Shown piece after piece: positions 9,483-21,141 of a stretch of 64,000 nucleotides of DNA (the stretch's first letter is position 1; each line of letters starts with the position of its first letter). The notes beneath the pieces were generated by a model, which saw only the letters and a program-made list of their open reading frames with translations, did not search any database and was not told where the DNA came from. This stretch comes from an uncultured Planctomycetota bacterium (GTDB lineage Bacteria > Planctomycetota > Planctomycetia > Isosphaerales > Isosphaeraceae). The stretch covers positions 32,001-96,000 of the forward strand of contig CAWJTV010000027.1 in NCBI GenBank assembly GCA_963845755.1. The letters are read 5' to 3'. The translations under genes and the position numbers were made by a program.

Positions 9483-10217
9483 ATGTCGGCCCCGACCCGT
9501 TGGATCCTTCTGGGATTGGTGCTGATCCTGATGCTGGCCCATCCCGGCATCGTCGCGGCCGGGATGGCCTCGCCGACTCTGGCCGATGTGAAGCGAGCCC
9601 TTGGGCTCTCGGACATGTCCCGGATGCGGCTGGAGGTGATCTCCGCCGCGCTGCTGGTGATCCTGCTCGGTGCCGGGGCGATCCAGTGGATCTGGAACGC
9701 CTTGCGCCGGGACTTCCCGCGGCTGCCCCGGCTCAGCTATGGGAAGGCGATGGGGATCGTCGTCCTGTGGGGGCTGCTCTTCGTCCTGGTGCTCACGATG
9801 ATCTCGGGCGCGCGGGAGCTGATGACGCCGGGGGCCTGGAAGAAGAAGGGGTTGACCTACCAGCTCGCCGCGGAGCCGCCCCCGGACGCGGAGCGCCTGA
9901 TCGCCGCCCGGGTCCAGGCGATCGAACGCCTGGGCGGCGCATTCCGCGACTATGCCAAGACCCACGGCCGCAACATCCCCACGGCTGAGGACGCGACCGC
10001 CCCGATCCCGGAGATCCTCTGGCAGGTCCCGGGTTTCCCCGGAGCGCGTTATGTCTATGTCGGCGACCGGATGGTCTCGGCAATGTTCTTGGGGACGCTG
10101 CTGGCCTACGAGCCCGACGCGGTCGGCCCCGACCGGCTGGTCATCGGGGCCAGCGGAGTGGCCATCTGGCTGCCCGCCGCCGAGATCGAACGCCTCTTGA
10201 GCCAGGGGGGGCGGTGA
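9483..10217 (+). CDS. Hypothetical membrane protein
   Basis: Three hydrophobic segments; VLTMISGARELMTPGAW motif; overlaps start of next gene. Confidence 0.7.
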   Translation: MSAPTRWILLGLVLILMLAHPGIVAAGMASPTLADVKRALGLSDMSRMRLEVISAALLVILLGAGAIQWIWNALRRDFPRLPRLSYGKAMGIVVLWGLLFVLVLTMISGARELMTPGAWKKKGLTYQLAAEPPPDAERLIAARVQAIERLGGAFRDYAKTHGRNIPTAEDATAPIPEILWQVPGFPGARYVYVGDRMVSAMFLGTLLAYEPDAVGPDRLVIGASGVAIWLPAAEIERLLSQGGR

Positions 10218-11284
10218 TGCGGAAGTACATCCTGGATCTCGTCCTGCTCGTGGCCGTGGTCGCGCTGATCGCCCAGTTCGGGGGTGTTGTCCGCGAAACC
10301 CTGCTGTATCTCGTGTTCGGCTGGTGGTGGTACGCGGAGCGGGTCATCCCCAAGGTGACCGTCTCGCGCGATGGCCTTAGCATGGGCATCGTCTGCCTGG
10401 TCCTGTTCGCGATCGGCTTTCACGCCTTGCTCCGCGGGTTCTACCGGGAGATCCAGCAGCCGGGCGAGCGTCCGGACACCGGCGCCCGCCGCTGGTCGTC
10501 GCGGTGGACGACCTCCATTATCGCGATCGTCCTCCTGATGTTCGTGATCGGACTCGCGGCCAGCGCGCTGGTGCATCAGGCCGGCTGGCTCATGAGATCC
10601 CCGGAACCGCTAATGGTTTCGAAGCCGGTGGTCCTTGGGAGTTCGCTCTGGAACCTCCGGCTCATCGGCGATGCAGCATTAGGATTTGAGACGTTACCCG
10701 CGGTCCGGGCCGATTCTCAGGAACCTGGATACCGGGCTCGTCTGGCGCCAACTCCAAAAGAGACGTTACCCGCGGCCCGGGTCGATTCTCAGGGACGGCT
10801 GCTGCATAGCTGGCAGACGGAGATCCTGTCGGGCCTGTGGATGCCCTTCTACGGCCAGTTCGACCCGGCCCGGCCCTGGAACGATCCGGTGAACTCCGCC
10901 TATTTCCGGGGAATCGTCCCCGTGTATCTCAACCCGGAGATCGGGGTCATCCGCAGCCCGGAAGGCTATGCGCTGAGCCACTATGCCGGCAACGTGAACG
11001 TCCTGGGGCGGGCCAAGCCCCTGGCGCTCAAGGAGATCGAGGGAAGCCTGGCCCAGACCGTCCTGGCGGGCGAGGTCTCGGTCAAGTTCAAGCCCTGGGG
11101 CGACCCGACCAACCTGCGCGACCCAATTCTTGGCATCAACACGATGCCCGATGCGTTCGGCAGCACGTCGCCGGGCGGAGCCCACTTCCTCTTCCTCGAC
11201 GGCTCCGTCCGGTTCGTGCGAGAGACCGCCGACCCGGCCGTCCTGCGGGCGATGAGCCGCACGAGTCCGCCAGCCGGCCACTGA
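10214..11284 (+). CDS. Membrane-anchored DUF1559 / H-X9-DG domain protein
   Basis: HSWQTEIL, FDPARPWNDPVN, GGAHFLFLDGSVRF; N-terminal TM helices. Confidence 0.8.
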   Translation: MMRKYILDLVLLVAVVALIAQFGGVVRETLLYLVFGWWWYAERVIPKVTVSRDGLSMGIVCLVLFAIGFHALLRGFYREIQQPGERPDTGARRWSSRWTTSIIAIVLLMFVIGLAASALVHQAGWLMRSPEPLMVSKPVVLGSSLWNLRLIGDAALGFETLPAVRADSQEPGYRARLAPTPKETLPAARVDSQGRLLHSWQTEILSGLWMPFYGQFDPARPWNDPVNSAYFRGIVPVYLNPEIGVIRSPEGYALSHYAGNVNVLGRAKPLALKEIEGSLAQTVLAGEVSVKFKPWGDPTNLRDPILGINTMPDAFGSTSPGGAHFLFLDGSVRFVRETADPAVLRAMSRTSPPAGH

Positions 11285-11408: not shown

Positions 11409-11427
11409 CCCCTTGCCGGCGTATTCC

Positions 11428-13228
<1,801 letters not shown>

Positions 13229-13300
13229 ATCGGACGTTCGCTGTGCTCGCGGAGTATTTGGTGTCAATCGCCCTTGGCCGTTGTCGTGGGCTCGCGGCGA

Positions 13301-14317
13301 TCAAGACGGCTTCCCTTTCTTCGACCGGCGTTTCCGTGTCCAGACCCGGCGCAGATCATCCGGGCTGGCCGCTGTCTCGATCGCATTGAGAAGCTTACGA
13401 AGCAACTTGTGGTCTTGAATCTCACGGAGATCCGGCATCAAATCCAGACCCTCGGCGCCGAACTTCATTCTCAGGCATGTCTCAATGCCTTGGAGAATAC
13501 CTTCAAGCAAACCCTCCTCCTTAGCCATCCGCTCCGTAATCGTGATAAATGGCATAGACTTCTCCTGCTGATAAACGCGGAGTTCTTGCCCAAACCGCTG
13601 TTCCAGTTCCGCCGGTAGCTCCATGATCCAGTCGATGAACCGATAGAGCTGTCGGATATCTTCCGCATCCATCCCCCGCTCGTACAGCCCCTTGACCAAC
13701 CGCAGCTTCCAGGCATGCCGATCGTCTGGCGACCGACGGGTCTCCAGGGTCTTGAGGTGCGCCAACACCACCATGGCGAACGGATTCGGATCGGCCTCCA
13801 ACTCCTGAACACGAGGCGCGTAGTCCAGCAGCTTGACAAAAGGAAACTCCGTGCCGGTGCGGAAGCCCCAGCGGCTGTATCCGAACTGGCTGGGCCGCCA
13901 GTCAGGATCGTCGTCGGCCAGGATCGCCAGGCTAATCACCTCACGATCATAACGGTCGAAGATCCGATGGTTGTAGACGTACATCCGCTTGGGAAAGTCG
14001 CGCTCCTTCCCGGCCTGCACCTCGACATGGATCAGGATCCACCGCTCTTCGCCGCTCTTGAGCCACACCTTGACCAACTTGTCCACGTAACGCCGGCCCC
14101 GTTTGGCCTGGCGGACGATCGGTTGCAGCTCTTTGTCCAGCATCTCATATCCGCGCGCCCAGTCGATCTCGGCATAAGCCTGCGGGAAGAAGAAGGCCAG
14201 GCAATGCTGGAAATAACGATCCAGCGCCTCTTTCCACGGACTATCATAGTCGATCCTGGGTCGTCTCGGCGCGCTTCGCCCGCCGGTCTTTCCCGACATC
14301 GATTTCCGTTTCGCCAT
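13301..14317 (-). CDS. Rpn/YhgA-like PD-(D/E)XK nuclease (putative transposase) family protein
   Basis: DYDSPWKEALDRYF...YVDKLVKVW...ILIHVEVQ...FPKRMYVYNHRIFDRY. Confidence 0.8.
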   Translation of the reverse strand: MAKRKSMSGKTGGRSAPRRPRIDYDSPWKEALDRYFQHCLAFFFPQAYAEIDWARGYEMLDKELQPIVRQAKRGRRYVDKLVKVWLKSGEERWILIHVEVQAGKERDFPKRMYVYNHRIFDRYDREVISLAILADDDPDWRPSQFGYSRWGFRTGTEFPFVKLLDYAPRVQELEADPNPFAMVVLAHLKTLETRRSPDDRHAWKLRLVKGLYERGMDAEDIRQLYRFIDWIMELPAELEQRFGQELRVYQQEKSMPFITITERMAKEEGLLEGILQGIETCLRMKFGAEGLDLMPDLREIQDHKLLRKLLNAIETAASPDDLRRVWTRKRRSKKGKPS

Positions 14318-14379: not shown

Positions 14380-14570
14380 GGCCTGGACATCACGGCCACT
14401 CTCGGGGTCCGGTCCGGCCGGGGCGCGGCGCCGGGCACGCTCCGGCCCCGTCCGGTTGGGCTCCGCCCTGCGGCTCCGCCGCACCACCGCCCAGGCCTCC
14501 GCGAGCCCGGCGTCGTTTCCCTCGCTTGAGCTCAGCGACCAGACTCTTCTAGGGCCACGCGGAACCCCAG
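14380..14570. repeat. Conserved 3' end and flank of TIR-FGE gene (copy 1), with two GGA-triloop hairpins
   Basis: Closely similar to ~17788-17977; hairpins at 14458-14468 and 14469-14483. Confidence 0.9.
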
Positions 14571-15899
14571 GTAGCTGCCCCGGTTCCCCGGCACGTTCCT
14601 GATGCGGTACGCCGACCGGGCGAAGCGGGGGTTGTTGATCCAGCTCCCGCCGCGGACGACCCGGCACGCGGCCTGCGTGGCACCCGGCGGATCGTCCACC
14701 GGCGACTCCTTGTAATAATCGGCCGCATACCCATCCGAACACCACTCGTAGACATTTCCGTGCATGTCAAACAGGCCCCATTTGTTCGACTTGTAGCGGC
14801 CTACCGGGGCCGTGTAGACGTAGCCGTCCCGCGCCGCGATCGTCGCCCACTGCCAGTTCGGATACTTCTCCTTCAACGTCCCATCGGCAATGTTCCCGAA
14901 CGCCGCCATGCCCTCGGGGTCGTCGCCGAAGACGTAGCGGGTCGTCGTCCCCGCTCGGCAGGCATATTCCCATTCCGCCTCCGTCGGCAGCCGGTAGGTC
15001 TTCCCCTCCTTCCGGCTCAGCCAGGCAACGAATGCCTGCGCGTCGTTCCAGCTCACGTTGACCACCGGATGGTCGTCGGTCTGCTCGAATCCTGCGTTTT
15101 GCCAGGTAAACTTCGGATCCTGCTCGAACTGCTTCGTCGCCTCATTCCAACCATACCCCCCCTTGCTATCTTTCTTCTCCGCCTCGGTCTGGTAGCCGGC
15201 CTCGTCCACGAACCGGCGGAACTGGCCGCGGGTCACCTCGGTCACGCCCAGGTAGAACGGCCGGGTGATCCGCACCCGATGCTTCTGCATCTTGCCGGCG
15301 GCCTTGTCTACAAACTCATCGTCGTACGCGTCTGGGTCGCTTTCATCCGAGCCCATCAGGAACTCACCGGCCGGGATCAAGGCCAGCTTCATCCCGATCG
15401 AGTTCGTCCACTCCTTCGGCTGTGGCGCACGTGGCTGGTGTGGCTGGAACAGGCGCTCAATCCCTTTGATGAGCCGGTTGATGTTGTTATCGAAGTCCCG
15501 TCCCGGATCCAGATTGAGTGCGTTGCGGTAGGCTAGCCCGGCCAGCGAGGGCGGCAGCTCCGCCTCGCCCGGCATCCGGGCGTGGTCGATCAGGATCGGC
15601 ACCACGGGCAGGTTCCGTTCCAGCGCCGATTCGATCTCGATCCGGACGAAGTCGCGCGGATCGTCGATCCGACGGGCAGCACCGGCCTCGCCGGCCCAGT
15701 GGCGGCCGATCACGGCCAGCAGGATGCCGCACTCGTCGACCGCCGCCTTGATGTGCTCGCGAAAGTCGACACCGAAGGGAATGGCATCGATGTCCATGAA
15801 GATGGCGTCGGGGCCGAAATGAGCGCGCAGGCGATCGTAGAGGAATTGGGCCACGTAGGCCGAATCCTGGCGCCGGTAGGAGAGGAAGATCCTGGCCAT
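14532..15899 (-). CDS. TIR domain + FGE-sulfatase (SUMF1/CLec fold) protein, probable DGR target
   Basis: TIR: IFLSYRRQD, FMDIDAIPFGVDF, DFVRIEIESAL; FGE: NSIGMKLALIPAGEFLMGS, YRLPTEAEWEYACRAG, GLFDMHGNVYEWC, RGGSW...GFRVA. Confidence 0.92.
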   Translation of the reverse strand: MARIFLSYRRQDSAYVAQFLYDRLRAHFGPDAIFMDIDAIPFGVDFREHIKAAVDECGILLAVIGRHWAGEAGAARRIDDPRDFVRIEIESALERNLPVVPILIDHARMPGEAELPPSLAGLAYRNALNLDPGRDFDNNINRLIKGIERLFQPHQPRAPQPKEWTNSIGMKLALIPAGEFLMGSDESDPDAYDDEFVDKAAGKMQKHRVRITRPFYLGVTEVTRGQFRRFVDEAGYQTEAEKKDSKGGYGWNEATKQFEQDPKFTWQNAGFEQTDDHPVVNVSWNDAQAFVAWLSRKEGKTYRLPTEAEWEYACRAGTTTRYVFGDDPEGMAAFGNIADGTLKEKYPNWQWATIAARDGYVYTAPVGRYKSNKWGLFDMHGNVYEWCSDGYAADYYKESPVDDPPGATQAACRVVRGGSWINNPRFARSAYRIRNVPGNRGSYLGFRVALEESGR

Positions 15900-16026
15900 C
15901 GATCCCTCACCGCATCGTTTCTTCGGTCTTCACTCCCTGATGGATGATACGCGACGACGTCTCGGGGCGTCCAGCACCTGGGGAAGTTGTTCGATTGTCC
16001 ATATTGGCTCGACCCGATCGCATCGC

Positions 16027-16832
16027 TCAGCCCTGTGCTGCGGCCACGATCGTCTCGGCCCAGGCGGCCTGATCGGGTCGGAGCGGAGGGATCATGGCGT
16101 CCTCGCCGTAACGGATCTCGCGCGCGTACGGTCCGGCATCGTAGCAGCGGTCGAAGACGGACTGGAGGTCGAGCGTCACCGAAGGGTCGCCGGGCAAGAG
16201 TGGGATCTCGACCGCCGGCAGGCGATCCTCCAGTCGGATCGGGTAGACGAAGACCGTTTCGAGGTCGTCGAAAGGCCGGACGGAAATGTGATAATCGAAC
16301 GGGCCGCACGCCTCGCGTGCCGCGTCGAGCGGGACGGCCGTCGTGTGCTCGCCGCTGCGCAGGAAGTCGAACTCGATCAGGTGGACCTGGCTCGCGAGGA
16401 TCTCGTTCTGCTTGCGCTTGTAGAGGTCGCGCCCCTGTTCGCCGGGCGTCTTGTTCGAGAGGCTGAGGACCTCGATGGAGGTGACCAGTCGCTTGCCTTC
16501 GCCGCTCCGCGTAGATCTCGACGAAGGGCTCGCGGATCTCGTCGTGAGCGACCTTGATCGCGACAGGCTGGGCCGCGGGTGCATTGGCGACGGCCACCGA
16601 CCGACGACCTCCGGCTTGCGATGTGGTGGACCGCGCGCACCGCACCTCCACGTCGGGGCCAATCGAGCGCCTGAGAGCTCGATCCAGATCCGACGGCCCA
16701 GCGCCGCGAAGTAGGGGCTGGTAGACTCGCCTGAATCGCTTCCCGCAAGTAGGTGATGAAACTGTCGTGGAAGTCCGGAAAGATCTCCGGGTTCTCCAGG
16801 TAGGGGTCCATGCCTGGGAAGGGCGAGGGCAT
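16027..16832 (-). CDS. DUF4058 family protein (PD-(D/E)XK-like; several frameshifts)
   Basis: MPSPFPGMDPYLE...FHDSFITYLREAI; VTSIEVLSLSNK...GRDLYKRKQ...VHLIEFDFLRSG...LDLQSVFDRCYD. Confidence 0.85.
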
Positions 16833-16899
16833 CGCAATCCTCGAAGTGAACCGGGGCACCGATTAAGGAACGCCCCGAGCGTTCGCCAAGTGAACGGAC

Positions 16900-17798
16900 T
16901 CAGCCCTTGAGCGAACCCAGCAGGTCGGCCCAGGTCGAGACATCCTCGATGCGGTCCTGGAGGTCATGCAGGGTCCCGAGATCGGCGATGGACGCGATCT
17001 GGGCCTGGACCCCTTCTTCAGGGGGACCCAGCTTCCGGCGGCCCTGACGCAAAAGAGTCGCTCTCGCCTCCTCGGCAAGGCCCTCAGCGCAACCCTTGGC
17101 CTCGCCCTTGCGGAGGATACCCTGATAGACCGACGATTCCTCGATCCCTTCAATTCCGAACAACATGGCGGACATCCCCTCGATGATCGCGTCGACCTGC
17201 TTTTCCTCGTAGCGCAAGCCCATCAGGATCTTGGTCGCGTTCCACAACGTCGCCGCCTGCTCCCGGTTGGTTTCCCGCGCCATCCGATCCGACATGGCCA
17301 GGAGTACGCTGGGAACTCGCTCGACCGCGACATTCGACACCGGCGCCAGCGGCAAGACCGGCAAGCCCGCCACCAGGACCTCCTCCACCGGCTGCTGCCA
17401 GACCCTCACGACATTGTAGCGGAATGTGTCGTAAATGTCCCCGTGGCGATCTTGCTGCTCGAAGACCCCCGTCAACTCCGGACCATCGACCACGGGTCGC
17501 AACAAAATGACCGACGAATGCACGGGGACCTGGAAACTGTGTCGGATGATGGTGCTGTACCAGTGCACGCCCTCCGGCAAGTCGGGGTTGCGGCCTGCCT
17601 GGAGCTCGAGGTGCTCGATCCAGGGCTGGGGATCGTCCACCCAGAGGACCTTGTCGGCCTCGGCGGTAACGGTCGAGAGGTTCGAGTCGATCACCTTGAC
17701 CGCGCGGGATCAGCAACCGGGATGTGCAGAAAGCGAAGCCACGCCGCCGGCTCCATCTCGATCAGCTTCCGCAGCGTCGCGTCAAATGGCCTGGACAT
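16900..17798 (-). CDS. Rpn-like / DUF4351-type protein (frameshift near 17700)
   Basis: MSRPFDATLRKLIEMEPAAWL + VIDSNLSTVTAEADKVL..HLELQAG...EESSVYQGILRKGEAKG..EEARATLLRQGRRKLG. Confidence 0.75.
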
Positions 17799-17977
17799 CA
17801 CCACCCCTATCTGGACCCGGTCCGGCTCGGGCGCGACATCGGGCACGCTCCGGCCCCGGCCGGTTGGGCTCCGCCCTGCGGCTCCGCCGCACCACCGGCC
17901 AGGCCTCCGCGAGCCCGCCGGCGTTTCCTCGCTTGAGCTCAGCGGCCAGACTCCTCTAGGGCCACGCGGAACCCCAG
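17788..17977. repeat. Conserved 3' end and flank of TIR-FGE gene (copy 2), with two GGA-triloop hairpins
   Basis: Matches 14380-14570; hairpins at 17866-17876 and 17877-17891. Confidence 0.9.
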
Positions 17978-19206
17978 GTCGTTGAACCGGTTCACCGGCA
18001 CGTGCCCGCAGCGGTTCGCCGACCGGGCGCGGCGGGGGCGTAGAACCAGCTCCCGCCGCGGATCACCCGGAGCGCGGCCTGCGCGGCGCCCGGCGGATCG
18101 TCCACCGGCGACTGTTTGTAATAATCGGCCGTATACCCGTCCCAACACCACTCCCAAACGTTCCCCAACATGTCGTAGAGTCCCCACTCGTTTCGTTTCT
18201 TCTGACCGACCGGGTGGGTCTTACTATCGGAGTTCTTTTCGTACCACGCGTACTCTCCCAGCCCGTTCTCATCGTCACCGGAGGGATACCGCGTCGAGCG
18301 GCCGGCTCGGCAGGCATATTCCCATTCCGCCTCGGTGGGCAGACGGTAACCGTTGCCACCAGCAATGGTGACCGTGTCGCCCGCGATTCGATAGTAAGGT
18401 TTCCGACCTTCCCGCTCGCTCAGCTTGTTGCAGAACTTGACCGCGTCCAGCCAGGAGACCTTTTCAACCGGCAGGTCATCCGACCCCTTGAATGTGCTCG
18501 GGTTCTCGCCCATCACGGCCTGGTATTGGCCCTGAGTCACCTCGGTCACGCCCAGGTAGAACGGCCGGCTGATCCGCACCCGATGCTTCTGCTTCTTGCC
18601 GGCGGCCTTGTCCAGAAATTCATTGTCGAACGCATCCGGATCGCTTTCATCCGAGCCCATCAGGAACTCGCCGGACAGGATCAGCGTCAGCGTCATCCCG
18701 ATCGAGTTGGTCAACTCCTTCTGCGGCTGTGACGGAGGCGGCTGAGCTGGCTGGATCAGGCGTTCGATCCCTTGGATGAGCCGGTTGACGTTGTGGTCGA
18801 AGTCCCGTCCCGGATCCAGATCGAGCGCGTTGCGGTAGGCCAGCCGGGCCAGCGAGGGCGGCAGGTCCACCTCGCCCGGCATCCGGGCGTGGTCGATCAG
18901 GATCGGCACCACGGGGAGGTTCCGCTCCAGCGCGGATTCGATCTCGATCCGAACGAAGTCGCGCGGATCGTCGATCCGACGGGCAGCACCGGCCTCGCCC
19001 GCCCAGTGGCGGCCGATCACGGCCAGCAGGATGCCGCACTCGTCGACCGCCGCCTTGATGTGCTCGCGAAAGTCGACACCGAAGGGAATGGCATCGATGT
19101 CCATGAAGATGGCGTCGGGGCCGAAATGAGCGCGAAGCCGATCGTAGAGGAATTGGGCCACGTAGGCCGCGTCCTGGCGCCGGTAGGAGAGGAAGATCTT
19201 GGCCAT
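17939..19206 (-). CDS. TIR domain + FGE-sulfatase protein paralog 2, probable DGR target (1-nt loss in G-run near 18035)
   Basis: TIR nearly identical to copy 1; FGE motifs; the true C-terminus ...DLGFRVALEESGR lies in ORF 17939..18187. Confidence 0.9.
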
Positions 19207-19441
19207 CGATCCCTCGCCGCGTCGGTCGGTTCTTCGGTCTTCACTCCCTGATGGATGAGATGATACGCGACGAGGTCACGGGCCGTCCATCCTCTGGGGG
19301 TGCCATCGATTTCGGAAGATGGGTCAATCGAGGCCCGAATTCCCTCTTCAGGTCACCGTGGCTGACGGTCTCTCCCTGTTCGACCAGTCGGCGTGCTGGC
19401 TACAGTGAGAGTCCCTGGCCGATCGAGCGTCCGAGCGACCC

Positions 19442-20035
19442 TCAAGCCGGTCTCTCTCGCTTCGAACGGCGGCTTTCGCGTCCAGACCCGGCGCAGATCG
19501 TCCGGGCTGGCCGCTGTCTCAATCGCATTCAGAATCCGACTCAGCAATTCATGGTCGTGAAGCTCACGAAGGTCTGGCATCAGCTCTAGACCTTCCTCGC
19601 CAAATTTCATTCGTAGGCATGCCTCGATGCCTTCAAGCAGGCCCTTCTCCATGCCGACCCGCTCAAAAATTGTGATGAATGGCATGTGCTTCTCCTGCTG
19701 ATAAGCGGTGAGCTCTTGCTGGAAACGCTGTTCCAGTTCCTGGGGCAGATCCATGATCCAGTCAATGAATCGTAACAACTGCCGCACGTCCTCCGCATCC
19801 ATCCCGCGCTCGTAGAGCCCCTTGACTAGCCGCAGTTTCCAGGACTTCCGGTCAGCTGGCGACCGAGTCTCAGGGTCGTCCACGTGGATCAGGAGCCACC
19901 GCTCTTCACCGCCCTTGAGCCAGACCTTGACCAGCTTGTCGAACGTAACGCCGGCCCTGCTTGGCCTGGCGGACGATCGGCTGGAGCTCCTTGTCCAGCA
20001 TGTCCTAGCCGCGCGTCCAGTCGATCTCGGCGTGG
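19442..20035 (-). pseudogene. Degenerate Rpn-like gene: 5' truncated, central deletion, C-terminal part retained
   Basis: DKLVKVWLKGGEERWLLIHV is joined almost directly to ETRSPADRKSWKLRLVKGLYERG; homologous to 13301..14317. Confidence 0.8.
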
Positions 20036-20155
20036 GCGCGCGGAAAGAAGCGGGCTTGACGGCTCGCCTGAACTGGACTGGCGTGAAAGATTCCGGATAG
20101 GATGAGCAGGGCGTCAAGAGGTGTGAGACGAGATGCCAGAGGTGGACGCGTTCCC

Positions 20156-20400
20156 ATGATTCGTGCCATCGTTCAAAATGGGCTCCTGCACCGCTCGATC
20201 CCTTGCCACGCGACTGGGCCGAGGGTCGCATCGTCGTCGTCGAAGACGCCGAGTCTGCCATTTCCGATGATCTCGACGAGTGGTATGAGGAACTCAATCG
20301 CCTGGGACCGGCTCAATATGAGCCGGGTGAGCGCGAACAGATTCGGGCCATCTTGGCGGAAGCCGATGCACTCGTCCGTCGCGAGATGGGATCTCTGTGA
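20156..20400 (+). CDS. Putative antitoxin (frameshift near 20190)
   Basis: MIRAIVQNG...DPLPRDWAEGRIVVVE; stop overlaps the ATG of a PIN gene fragment. Confidence 0.5.
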
Positions 20401-20519: not shown

Positions 20520-20756
20520 TCAACCGCTCAGCCTCCGCTCGAGCTCTTCGCGACTGATGGTTTTCTGTCGTCGGCGTTCCTCCATCAGCTTCCAGAATTC
20601 GGGGTCGCTGGAGAGGCGAATTTGCTCTTCATCCATCCCATCGACGCTCACAACCAGCGCGATGGGATGGCCACCGCGCGTGAGGATCACCCGCTCTTGC
20701 TGCGCCTCGGTGACACAGCGATCAAGCGTGGCATCTTCCATGGCAACCGTTTTCAT
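20520..20756 (-). CDS. Antitoxin, Phd/YefM-like
   Basis: ERVILTRGGHPIALVVSV motif; 4-nt overlap with upstream toxin gene. Confidence 0.75.
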   Translation of the reverse strand: MKTVAMEDATLDRCVTEAQQERVILTRGGHPIALVVSVDGMDEEQIRLSSDPEFWKLMEERRRQKTISREELERRLSG

Positions 20757-21052
20757 AGGATCTCCTCCGTCGTCTTGTGCGGCGGTTTGTGCCGGATTGC
20801 CCGAACCACCACGCGCTGTTCCTCTTCATCCACCGCGTAGAACACTCGAAATTCGCCAATACGAAGTTCCCAAACAGGTCCCGCATGCTCCCAAGGAGGA
20901 TCCAATCCGACGAGTTCTTTCTTGTTTCGAGTCTCCGCCGTGGGCTGATGGATAAGCTGCTGGTCAATCTGATCCAGAATCCGCTTGCGATCGAAAGCAC
21001 GGAGATCCGCCAAGTCCTCAGCGACCGCTTCGCTAAACTCAATAGTGAACAT
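20753..21052 (-). CDS. RelE/ParE family toxin
   Basis: MFTIEFSEAVAEDL...WELRIGEFRVFYAVDEEEQRVVVRAIRHK. Confidence 0.88.
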   Translation of the reverse strand: MFTIEFSEAVAEDLADLRAFDRKRILDQIDQQLIHQPTAETRNKKELVGLDPPWEHAGPVWELRIGEFRVFYAVDEEEQRVVVRAIRHKPPHKTTEEIL

Positions 21053-21141
21053 GTCTCGCATTTTCGATTCCGGCTGCCTATTCCGGTCAGTCTATCCTCT
21101 CCGCTATTGTAACCGAATCACGCACCGGAACATCCCTCCGG

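Follow-up and report, generated by a model that had tools for sequence, protein, structure and literature searches.

Variable regions of retroelement type in two TIR-FGE genes of a very large planctomycete-like genome

Two genes, here called A and B, lie near each other on the minus strand of the stretch of DNA analysed, a window of 64,000 nucleotides that spans positions 32001-96000 of contig C27 in a 14.27-Mb genome assembly of 49 contigs (the host genome, G000). Each encodes a TIR domain joined to an FGE-sulfatase domain, and each carries near its 3' end a short variable region (VR) of the kind written by diversity-generating retroelements (DGRs). Contigs are given C numbers throughout; G001 is a genome of the same genus (the congener) and other G numbers denote the genomes of relatives. 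A DGR origin of both VRs is well supported by sequence comparison, and the reading that we favour on balance is that they were written by a DGR and then orphaned, most likely after its machinery was lost.

Two TIR-FGE genes and their variable regions

The features of the two genes are the following.

14532-15899, minus strand: gene A, an intact 455-aa open reading frame (ORF) with TIR_2 and FGE-sulfatase domains
15471-15890, minus strand: TIR domain of A (Pfam TIR_2, E=2.8e-12, aa 4-143)
15636-15638, minus strand: putative catalytic Glu88 of A, within FVRIEIESAL
14553-15380, minus strand: FGE-sulfatase (C-type-lectin-like) domain of A (Pfam, E=3e-61, aa 174-449)
14571-14639, minus strand: VR of A, 23 codons from GGSW to LGFRVA (aa 421-443 of 455)
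14425-14537, minus strand: 3' element of A, past the stop codon; nested GC hairpins are predicted at ~14448-14494
17939-19206, minus strand: gene B, a TIR_2 plus FGE-sulfatase paralogue whose frame is broken by a 1-nt deletion in its VR
17978-18045, minus strand: VR of B, 68 nt, with a base missing at ~18038-18040 in an AAC-type codon
17832-17944, minus strand: 3' element of B, past the stop codon of B

Both proteins have the domains that the original prediction had assigned to them: Pfam recognizes TIR_2 in A and B (E ~1e-11 to 1e-12, aa 4-144) as well as FGE-sulfatase (E=3e-61 in A, 6.5e-47 in B), and the VR of A falls within the FGE-sulfatase match at the 3' end of the gene, as it does in DGR targets. 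This architecture is common in metagenomes, and many of the best 120 matches listed have both domains. In B the main ORF (17992-19206, 404 aa) terminates within the VR and the tail, the last 17 codons (...LGFRVALEESGR), is read in another frame as part of an ORF at 17939-18187. When aligned by blastn, the two genes are 90.6% identical over 773 nt in the TIR part and 85% identical over 407 nt at the 3' end, with a middle that cannot be aligned, a mosaic structure which implies that recombination between paralogues occurs.

Twelve of the 23 VR codons differ between A and B and the other 11 are identical; the coordinates and the list of differing codons in the original prediction proved correct on re-checking. 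The differences comprise 15 substitutions and the 1-nt deletion in B. Nine or ten substitutions (9-10) fall at codon position 1 and five or six (5-6) at position 2, a split that depends on the placement of the 1-nt gap, and none falls at position 3. In contrast, the 45 codons directly upstream of the VR differ at 8, 5 and 13 first, second and third positions, respectively, which is the usual pattern of drift. Third-position differences thus number 13/45 in the flank and 0/23 in the VR (Fisher p=0.0029), which upholds the earlier claim that changes restricted to positions 1 and 2 are unlike neutral drift. All variable codons in both VRs still read NNC. Since the non-variable VR positions are identical in A and B while their flanks have diverged by 14-15%, the writing of the VRs postdates the split of the two genes. 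The odd codon G(C)C had been rightly listed as well, but its effect of putting B out of frame went unmentioned.

A and B are members of a larger family. The host genome has six copies of the scaffold in which the same codons vary, each followed by a conserved 3' element of ~110 nt. Besides A and B, these are:

C26:46219-46556: A/B-type scaffold copy
C8:31994-32249: A/B-type scaffold copy
C7:49362-49659: A/B-type scaffold copy
C7:55880-56140: A/B-type scaffold copy

Third-position decay (AAT, TTT, CTT, GCT) is present in the C26, C8 and two C7 copies. Remoter versions of the scaffold stand at the ends of other FGE genes, including a kinase-FGE gene at C20:603.3 kb, a gene with a transmembrane (TM) segment between its domains (TIR-TM-FGE) at C48:3.1 kb, a gene at C36:530 kb and others elsewhere. 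A count of FGE genes with this scaffold, which the original prediction had proposed, therefore gives six close copies, A and B included, and 13 matches at E<0.01 to an nhmmer profile of the VR over the whole host genome.

DGR targets are recognized through cis-acting elements, an IMH at the VR 3' end and a required hairpin or cruciform downstream of the VR. In the host genome an nhmmer profile of the 3' element finds six copies (E<=6.3e-17), all directly after VR scaffolds, and the next match has E=0.3. The element is GC-rich, and RNAalifold predicts a 9-bp outer stem enclosing two short hairpins; the consensus fold has 22 pairs, of which only 1 covaries. A downstream hairpin in DGR targets is mentioned in Vallota-Eastman et al. 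(2020, PMC7517822), and the 3' element may likewise act in target recognition. In the mechanism envisaged, a reverse transcriptase (RT) would copy a template repeat (TR) bearing AAC at each variable codon, misreading adenines, and the resulting complementary DNA would replace the 23-codon VR at the ligand-binding tip of the protein. Targeting would probably rely on the conserved end of the VR together with the hairpin-forming element past the stop codon.

Retroelement, templates and remote target in the congener

Two sets of DGR components are present in the congener.

G001, contig C12: canonical DGR cassette with a kinase-FGE target, an HRDC-domain ORF, an RT and a TR
G001, contig C2, ~848.6-849.0 kb: second set, in the order VR, 3' element, TR (TR_C2)

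The RT of the C12 cassette is a 330-aa protein with an LPIGSLTSQ motif (LPIGSLTSQHFANFYL...YVRYMDD), and it is followed directly by a non-coding TR whose variable codons read AAC. In the second set, all differences between the VR and TR_C2 (18/18) are at TR adenines, up to the 3' homology boundary.

The window can be placed on the congener's map. The region of B corresponds to G001:C2:230.5-234.1 kb, where identity in the TIR DNA is 87% and the counterpart of B adjoins a homologue of the window's 338-aa gene (13301-14317). This positional homologue is a TIR-TM-FGE gene at ~232.3-233.8 kb, 615 kb from TR_C2. Between its VR and TR_C2 there are 12 substitutions and 1 deletion, every one of them at a TR adenine, as well as a 1-nt insertion and no further difference. 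Because the VR matches the template at every non-adenine base across 615 kb, a TIR-FGE gene is demonstrably a remote DGR target in the congener. The original prediction that such genes are remote targets is thus borne out for the homologue of B, but the action of a DGR on A and B themselves in the host genome is unsupported. Both VRs of the congener that match TR_C2 also carry the 3' element.

With the congener's TR as a proxy for the host's own template, TR_C2 can serve as an outside predictor of where A and B should differ. Thirteen of the 15 differing columns (13/15) are at its adenines (13/13 versus 2/76, p=6.7e-8). Across the six paralogues, at least 3 bases occur in 20/27 TR-adenine columns compared to 7/78 other columns (p=2.8e-10), and the other TR of the congener gives the same outcome more weakly (p=1.5e-5). 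This agreement with TR_C2 adenines, along with 0/15 substitutions at position 3, bears out the earlier description of the VRs as DGR-type. Likewise, the template that had been deduced from A and B, with AAC at each variable codon, closely resembles the TRs of relatives, namely TR_C2 (G001:C2 ~848.9 kb) and, closest of all, a TR-like sequence in another genus (G015:C511) that reads TGG AAC AAC AAC CCG CGC AAC ... AAC CGC AAC AGG AAC ... AAC CGG AAC AAC AAC.

It is against this evidence that an origin without any retroelement has to be judged, in which diversifying selection on binding residues and gene conversion among FGE paralogues would have produced the pattern. The A/B mosaics (90.6% in the TIR part, 85% at the 3' end, unalignable middle) fit such an origin, as do hypervariable positions that recur across 26 TIR-FGE homologues. 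However, it gives no reason why the variable sites should coincide with the adenines of a relative's non-coding template, why C is kept at position 3 of the variable codons or why a VR-specific 3' element stands at all six copies, and it does not account for a positional homologue of B that equals the TR at every non-adenine base. We regard it as very improbable.

The conserved sequence around the templates extends beyond the TR itself. A region 3' of the TR is common to three TRs from two genera (L040 1776-2150, L090 7240-7620, L032 reverse 1510-1890) and consists of a variable hairpin followed by GAACCGAyCGCyCTCC.GTyCCG and CGGrCAAA; it is probably the spacer of the DGR RNA. Directly after TR_C2 lies a small ORF (G001:C2:849.3-849.7 kb, L045 ~1870-2281) with an HAE...PCPDC motif, which to our eye resembles the zinc site of cytidine or nucleotide deaminases. 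The ORF has no family match save a spurious one from its TR part, and no tblastn match in the host genome. Outside the family, among GTDB loci encoding relatives of A, a TR/VR pair is found within the 4-kb flanks in 4/78 and a DGR RT in 2/78. Two of those four TR/VR loci are from Chlorobiaceae, and there the match to A starts in the TIR part (residues 32-450 and 4-450).

The search for a writer in the host genome

The original prediction had A and B diversified in trans by a DGR elsewhere in the genome, a claim that gained no support in 14.27 Mb, where five types of probe found no TR, spacer or DGR RT. It had proposed a genome-wide BLASTN search for a non-coding copy with A at every variable position beside an RT and an Avd gene; run on all 49 contigs with both VR regions at word size 7, blastn returned only coding VR copies. 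Nor did nhmmer profiles of the VR, the untranslated region (UTR) or the two combined (VR+UTR) reveal a non-coding template copy in the host genome. There, a profile of the TR-linked spacer gave a best E of 0.65, and one of TR plus spacer gave only the known VRs.

Searches for the enzyme were equally negative. Among the 42 PF00078 matches of the host genome, those inspected (not all 42) included no RT of DGR type; they were group-II-intron-like (TPQGG...SP...YADD), retron/Abi-like (C36, C3, C11), a 527-aa ORF on C19 and an 'RVADD' RT on C7. A six-frame regular expression for the DGR motif (I/LGxxxSQ, which we take to mark the RTs of this clade, having checked it on 6 relatives) gave 0 strict and 4 loose non-RT matches in the host, and the same pattern recovers DGR RTs in six loci of relatives. 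The loose scan flagged C29:432261-433271 and C29:447005-448216, both rejected as neither reads as an RT. The congener's RT finds at best 28% identity by tblastn in the host genome. A homologue search with a DGR RT yielded no host candidate among 32 at E<=1e-15, and returned DGR-type homologues in G001, G040, G005 and G012 at 39-100% identity. Accessory genes were no better guide. Five PF05635 four-helix-bundle (Avd-like) matches are scattered over the host genome, none near an RT match or VR, and its sole HRDC match falls at the C-terminal end of a RecQ-like ORF; both were discarded as DGR markers. By the test that the original prediction set itself, its case depended on a template or an RT being present either in the host or in a close relative: neither was found in the host, and both are present in the congener.

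Public sequencing runs were also searched, and none holds the window; the best share of sampled words was 0.13, with soil-metagenome contigs. At 80% likeness, four runs contain short, low-depth pieces of related FGE genes, with no contig that crosses the VR with this strain's flanks.

Two sequences of the host genome deserve separate mention. The first is the 520-aa RT ORF at C7:26182-27744 (L018 904-2466), which reads QGSSLSPLL...IRVADD, with V for the usual Y/F before ADD, and shares the 76-kb contig C7 with two VR paralogues and a group II intron copy. The second belongs to another FGE family with a different VR-like scaffold, LLRGG.F...GFRLAR, present at C11:829975-834326, C25:57059-58399 and C11:649892-653506. 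Its copy at C11:834 kb has an unusually high share of AAC (SANRYRNAPANRNINIGFR) and a +1 frameshift, and it terminates a run of ORFs, the first of which (829975..) has a TIR-like N-terminus. As a candidate TR, C11:834242-834306 was rejected: it lies where an FGE gene with a frameshift has its VR, and it shows many non-adenine differences from A, B and members of its own family. No TR was found in the host genome for this second family either.

Rewriting by a non-canonical route could draw on these sequences, with some other RT, such as the 'RVADD' enzyme (C7:26.2-27.7 kb), using another paralogue's VR as template. The genome does hold 42 RT-domain matches, the unusual C7 RT lies 22 kb from two VR copies, and the sequence at C11:834242-834306 is AAC-rich at a VR position. 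On the other hand, the genome nowhere has a sequence with adenines at the sites that vary in A and B, the C11 sequence departs from A and B at many non-adenine bases, and the idea has no known precedent and nothing direct to tie these RTs to the VRs. Of the alternatives weighed here it is the one that we find least credible.

Because the TR, the TR-linked spacer and a DGR RT were not found in the host genome, a frozen orphan repertoire is the most likely state of its VRs, and two loci argue for loss of the writer rather than a gap in the assembly. On contig C20, the ortholog of a kinase-FGE target of the congener is collinear with it up to ...GCGCAGGCATGG. Beyond that point the host has 164 nt (C20:603554-603718), inside a 787-kb contig, versus 975 nt on C2 of the congener, and it is in these 975 nt that the remaining second half of the 3' element lies, along with the TR and the small ORF. 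The flank of the C12 cassette maps inside host contig C38 at ~29.4 kb, with unrelated sequence at the cassette site and no DGR beside it; synteny on C38 is rearranged, which makes this weaker evidence than C20. The completeness score of the host genome is 88%, and that of a single-contig 8.0-Mb relative (G024) is 58%. As G024 is one contig and yet scores 58%, the score runs too low in this family, and 88% need not mean that 12% of the host genome is missing.

The main competitor of this reading keeps A and B as live receptors. Here, an immune-receptor-like repertoire of the genus, made of cytosolic TIR-lectin, TIR-TM-lectin (of Toll-like topology) and kinase-lectin sensors, would be served by a few DGRs acting in trans; the one that rewrites A and B would sit on unassembled DNA, be it a gap, plasmid or phage, and the VR indels would be by-products of ongoing error-prone writing rather than signs of decay. 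Several observations suit it: the A and B VRs are pristine (all NNC, 0 third-position differences), the 3' element is intact at both genes, the congener's TR acts 615 kb from its target and trans-acting TRs are known from the literature, a TR resembling the A/B type is present in a second genus of the family (G015:C511), and the host assembly is not closed. Set against them are the five independent types of probe that find nothing in 14.27 Mb, the two loci that are syntenic with DGR parts of the congener, contiguous and devoid of them, and the quality of the assembly. A 2-kb cassette with 120-nt repeats ~80% identical is not hard to assemble, and near-identical 2.4-kb group II intron copies were assembled in this genome, five of them with 0 indels in ~9.7 kb. 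Furthermore, VR-like matches occur in 8/40 relatives, five of which (G002, G014, G015, G017 and G018) lack an RT of the clade at E<=1e-15, so orphan VR scaffolds seem common among relatives, although several of these genomes are fragmented metagenome-assembled genomes. We therefore hold a live system in trans to be possible but doubtful.

The frameshift in B bears on both readings. The deletion is in an AAC-type codon, and single-base VR indels are also found at C20 and C11:834 kb of the host and, in the congener, in the cis VR (C12) and the remote VR (C2:233.8 kb). The long reading frame that precedes the VR is open in 4/4 genes traced (B, C20, G001:C12 and G001:C2:233.8 kb). In Wu et al. (2018, PMC5758913), TR/VR length differences are given for 25/372 DGRs, mostly next to AAC, and are put down to RT slippage. 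We read the deletion as most probably a side effect of writing and not as random decay. We accordingly set aside the frameshift as proof of pseudogene decay, since VR indels beside AAC are a described DGR by-product and also occur in the DGR-bearing congener. An assembly error is another possible source of the deletion. The five intron copies have 0 indels, but a nearby ABC-F (Uup-like) gene, window 11413-13230 (plus strand), has an open 573 aa and a frameshift in its linker that puts the conserved C-terminal domain (...KERQELEALPGRIEVLE...AAYQRWETLE) in another frame, and this frameshift may be real or an assembly error.

Loss of the writer, the reading that we prefer, has several points against it. 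An open assembly of 49 contigs and no reads from the strain leave room for an unassembled DGR, whose existence we grant as a minority prospect. The VR of B has 12 non-adenine mismatches to TR_C2, so A and B were written from a TR of another type, and the deletion on C20 consequently removed a different TR and not directly that of A and B. The 1-nt VR indels of the DGR-bearing congener mean that the frameshift in B is no proof of inactivity. Finally, the pristine VRs of A and B argue for recent writing, so that any loss must itself be recent.

Probable sensor-effector function and known systems

The TIR domain of A/B is probably an NAD-cleaving effector (NAD, nicotinamide adenine dinucleotide). 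Residues 4-126 of A align to the TIR domain of SARM1, with DFVRIEIESAL opposite DWVHKEIVTAL and Glu88 opposite the Glu of KEI in SARM1, a residue that we take to be catalytic; the putative catalytic Glu of the original prediction (FVRIEIESAL) is thereby retained. Both E88 and E90 are invariant in the 26 TIR-FGE homologues. In a profile search of the PDB, the C-terminal domain matches FGEs (E ~1e-52) as well as TvpA (2y3c), a DGR target of Treponema (E=2.6e-32). The catalytic residues of FGEs are a cysteine pair. In A, INNPRFA aligns to the FGE segment LCHDSYC (S. coelicolor-type) and the VR covers exactly that loop; as the active-site Cys pair is absent, no FGE chemistry is expected, and the domain reads as a binding domain and not an enzyme. 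An AlphaFold2 model of A built on the 26-sequence alignment has a mean predicted local distance difference test score (pLDDT) of 64, with ~75-90 in the TIR part and <35 in residues 363-444, which include the VR.

In A and B, a short linker without a hydrophobic segment joins the two domains, and both proteins are for this reason probably cytosolic. Their paralogues at C7:47901-49553 and C48:1756-3258 and the congener's gene at G001:C2:232303-233838 (L031) have, by sequence reading, an RR-flanked hydrophobic stretch of ~20 residues between TIR and FGE, which suggests an outward variable lectin and a cytoplasmic TIR, in the topology of a Toll-like receptor. A and B are best read as cytosolic sensor-effectors in which a TIR domain is fused to a catalytically dead lectin-fold sensor. 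A ligand at the variable tip would cluster the TIR domains and lead to cleavage of NAD+, and the pair may serve an immune function. In the full sequence of events that we propose, the writer would have been lost from the lineage, leaving a frozen orphan repertoire while the congener keeps its DGR, and the deletion in B would stem from a final round of writing that went wrong and was not corrected by a later one.

The ORFs beside A and B include no NTPase, vWA or MoxR partner. Other neighbours in the window are:

10214-11284: DUF1559 gene, an indication of a planctomycete-like host
13301-14317: 338-aa gene, of a family also found just upstream of B (19353-20297)
16027-16859, minus strand: DUF4058 gene between A and B, split by an apparent frameshift into two overlapping ORFs (16377-16859 covers profile positions 1-38; 16027-16662 covers 112-253)
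16900-17694, minus strand: 264-aa gene just downstream of the 3' element of B, with no Pfam/NCBIfam match
20753-21061, minus strand: 102-aa ORF with a weak, below-cut-off RelE/StbE toxin match (E=7e-4)

The 264-aa gene also lies downstream of the 3' element at the C26 paralogue (C26:45299-46126), has a homologue just downstream of the TR-spacer in G015:C511 (L032) and gives 8 tblastn matches of >=150 aa in the host genome. Small ORFs are abundant beyond gene B.

The main ideas at work here, namely TIR-CLec (C-type lectin) DGR targets and trans-acting DGRs, are already in print and the present case is not new in kind. Remote targets >100 kb away and HRDC-type cassettes are described in Wu et al. 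(2018, PMC5758913). DGR targets with an N-terminal TIR, CHAT, kinase or STAND domain and a C-terminal CLec/FGE domain, proposed to be antigen sensors, appear in Dore et al. (2024, PMC10907252), which also covers TRs that act in trans and loci that are incomplete. Kaur, Burroughs, Iyer and Aravind (2020, PMC7159879) treat FGS/FGE effectors of conflict systems and include examples from planctomycetes, and for cyanobacteria TIR-like domains joined to CLec, together with 76 remote targets, are given in Vallota-Eastman et al. (2020, PMC7517822). The window contributes a minimal TIR-lectin version of two domains, from a very large planctomycete-like genome. Of greater use is the contrast within one genus, an RT with TRs and a remote TIR target in one genome versus the same targets without a detectable writer in the other. 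Such a pair could reveal the fate of a hypervariable receptor repertoire once diversification stops, whether kept or decaying, and it offers a simple system for asking whether a ligand at the variable tip turns on a TIR NADase. In the published proposals, DGR-diversified lectin-fold sensors with TIR, kinase or STAND effectors are bacterial antigen receptors.

The closest relatives in organization are the remote DGR targets, as described for the Treponema denticola TvpA family and the trans-diversified targets of Thiohalocapsa PB-PSB1 (Wu et al. 2018; Dore et al. 2024). Like A and B, they have the VR at the 3' end of an FGE/CLec gene, variation limited to positions 1 and 2 of AAC-type codons and no RT or TR beside the gene; in the published cases, however, the genome that has the target also contains the TR and RT at another site, and none was found in the host. 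The antigen-sensor conflict systems, as their published descriptions go, similarly place an effector or signalling domain N-terminal to a hypervariable C-terminal FGE/CLec domain, and in those systems as in the host genome TIR and kinase versions coexist with many paralogues among mobile-looking genes. A and B differ from them in being a minimal two-domain TIR-FGE form with no NTPase, vWA or MoxR partner beside it, in a planctomycete-like host with a 14-Mb genome whose diversifier was not found. The FGEs proper (SUMF1/FGE; PDB 6muj, 2q17) share the fold of the domain of A, are strongly similar to it in sequence (E=1.6e-36) and have the two cysteines of LCHDSYC, where A instead has INNPRFA and the VR. 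Among TIR NAD+ hydrolases, the SARM1 TIR is matched by the 26-sequence profile at E ~6e-7 and has a Glu aligned with Glu88, and Thoeris ThcB4 gives a weak, below-cut-off match to the A/B TIR. Thoeris-type TIR proteins work with a separate ThsA-type partner, unlike the TIR of A/B, and whereas SARM1 has SAM/ARM domains, the TIR of A and B is fused directly to a lectin-fold sensor.

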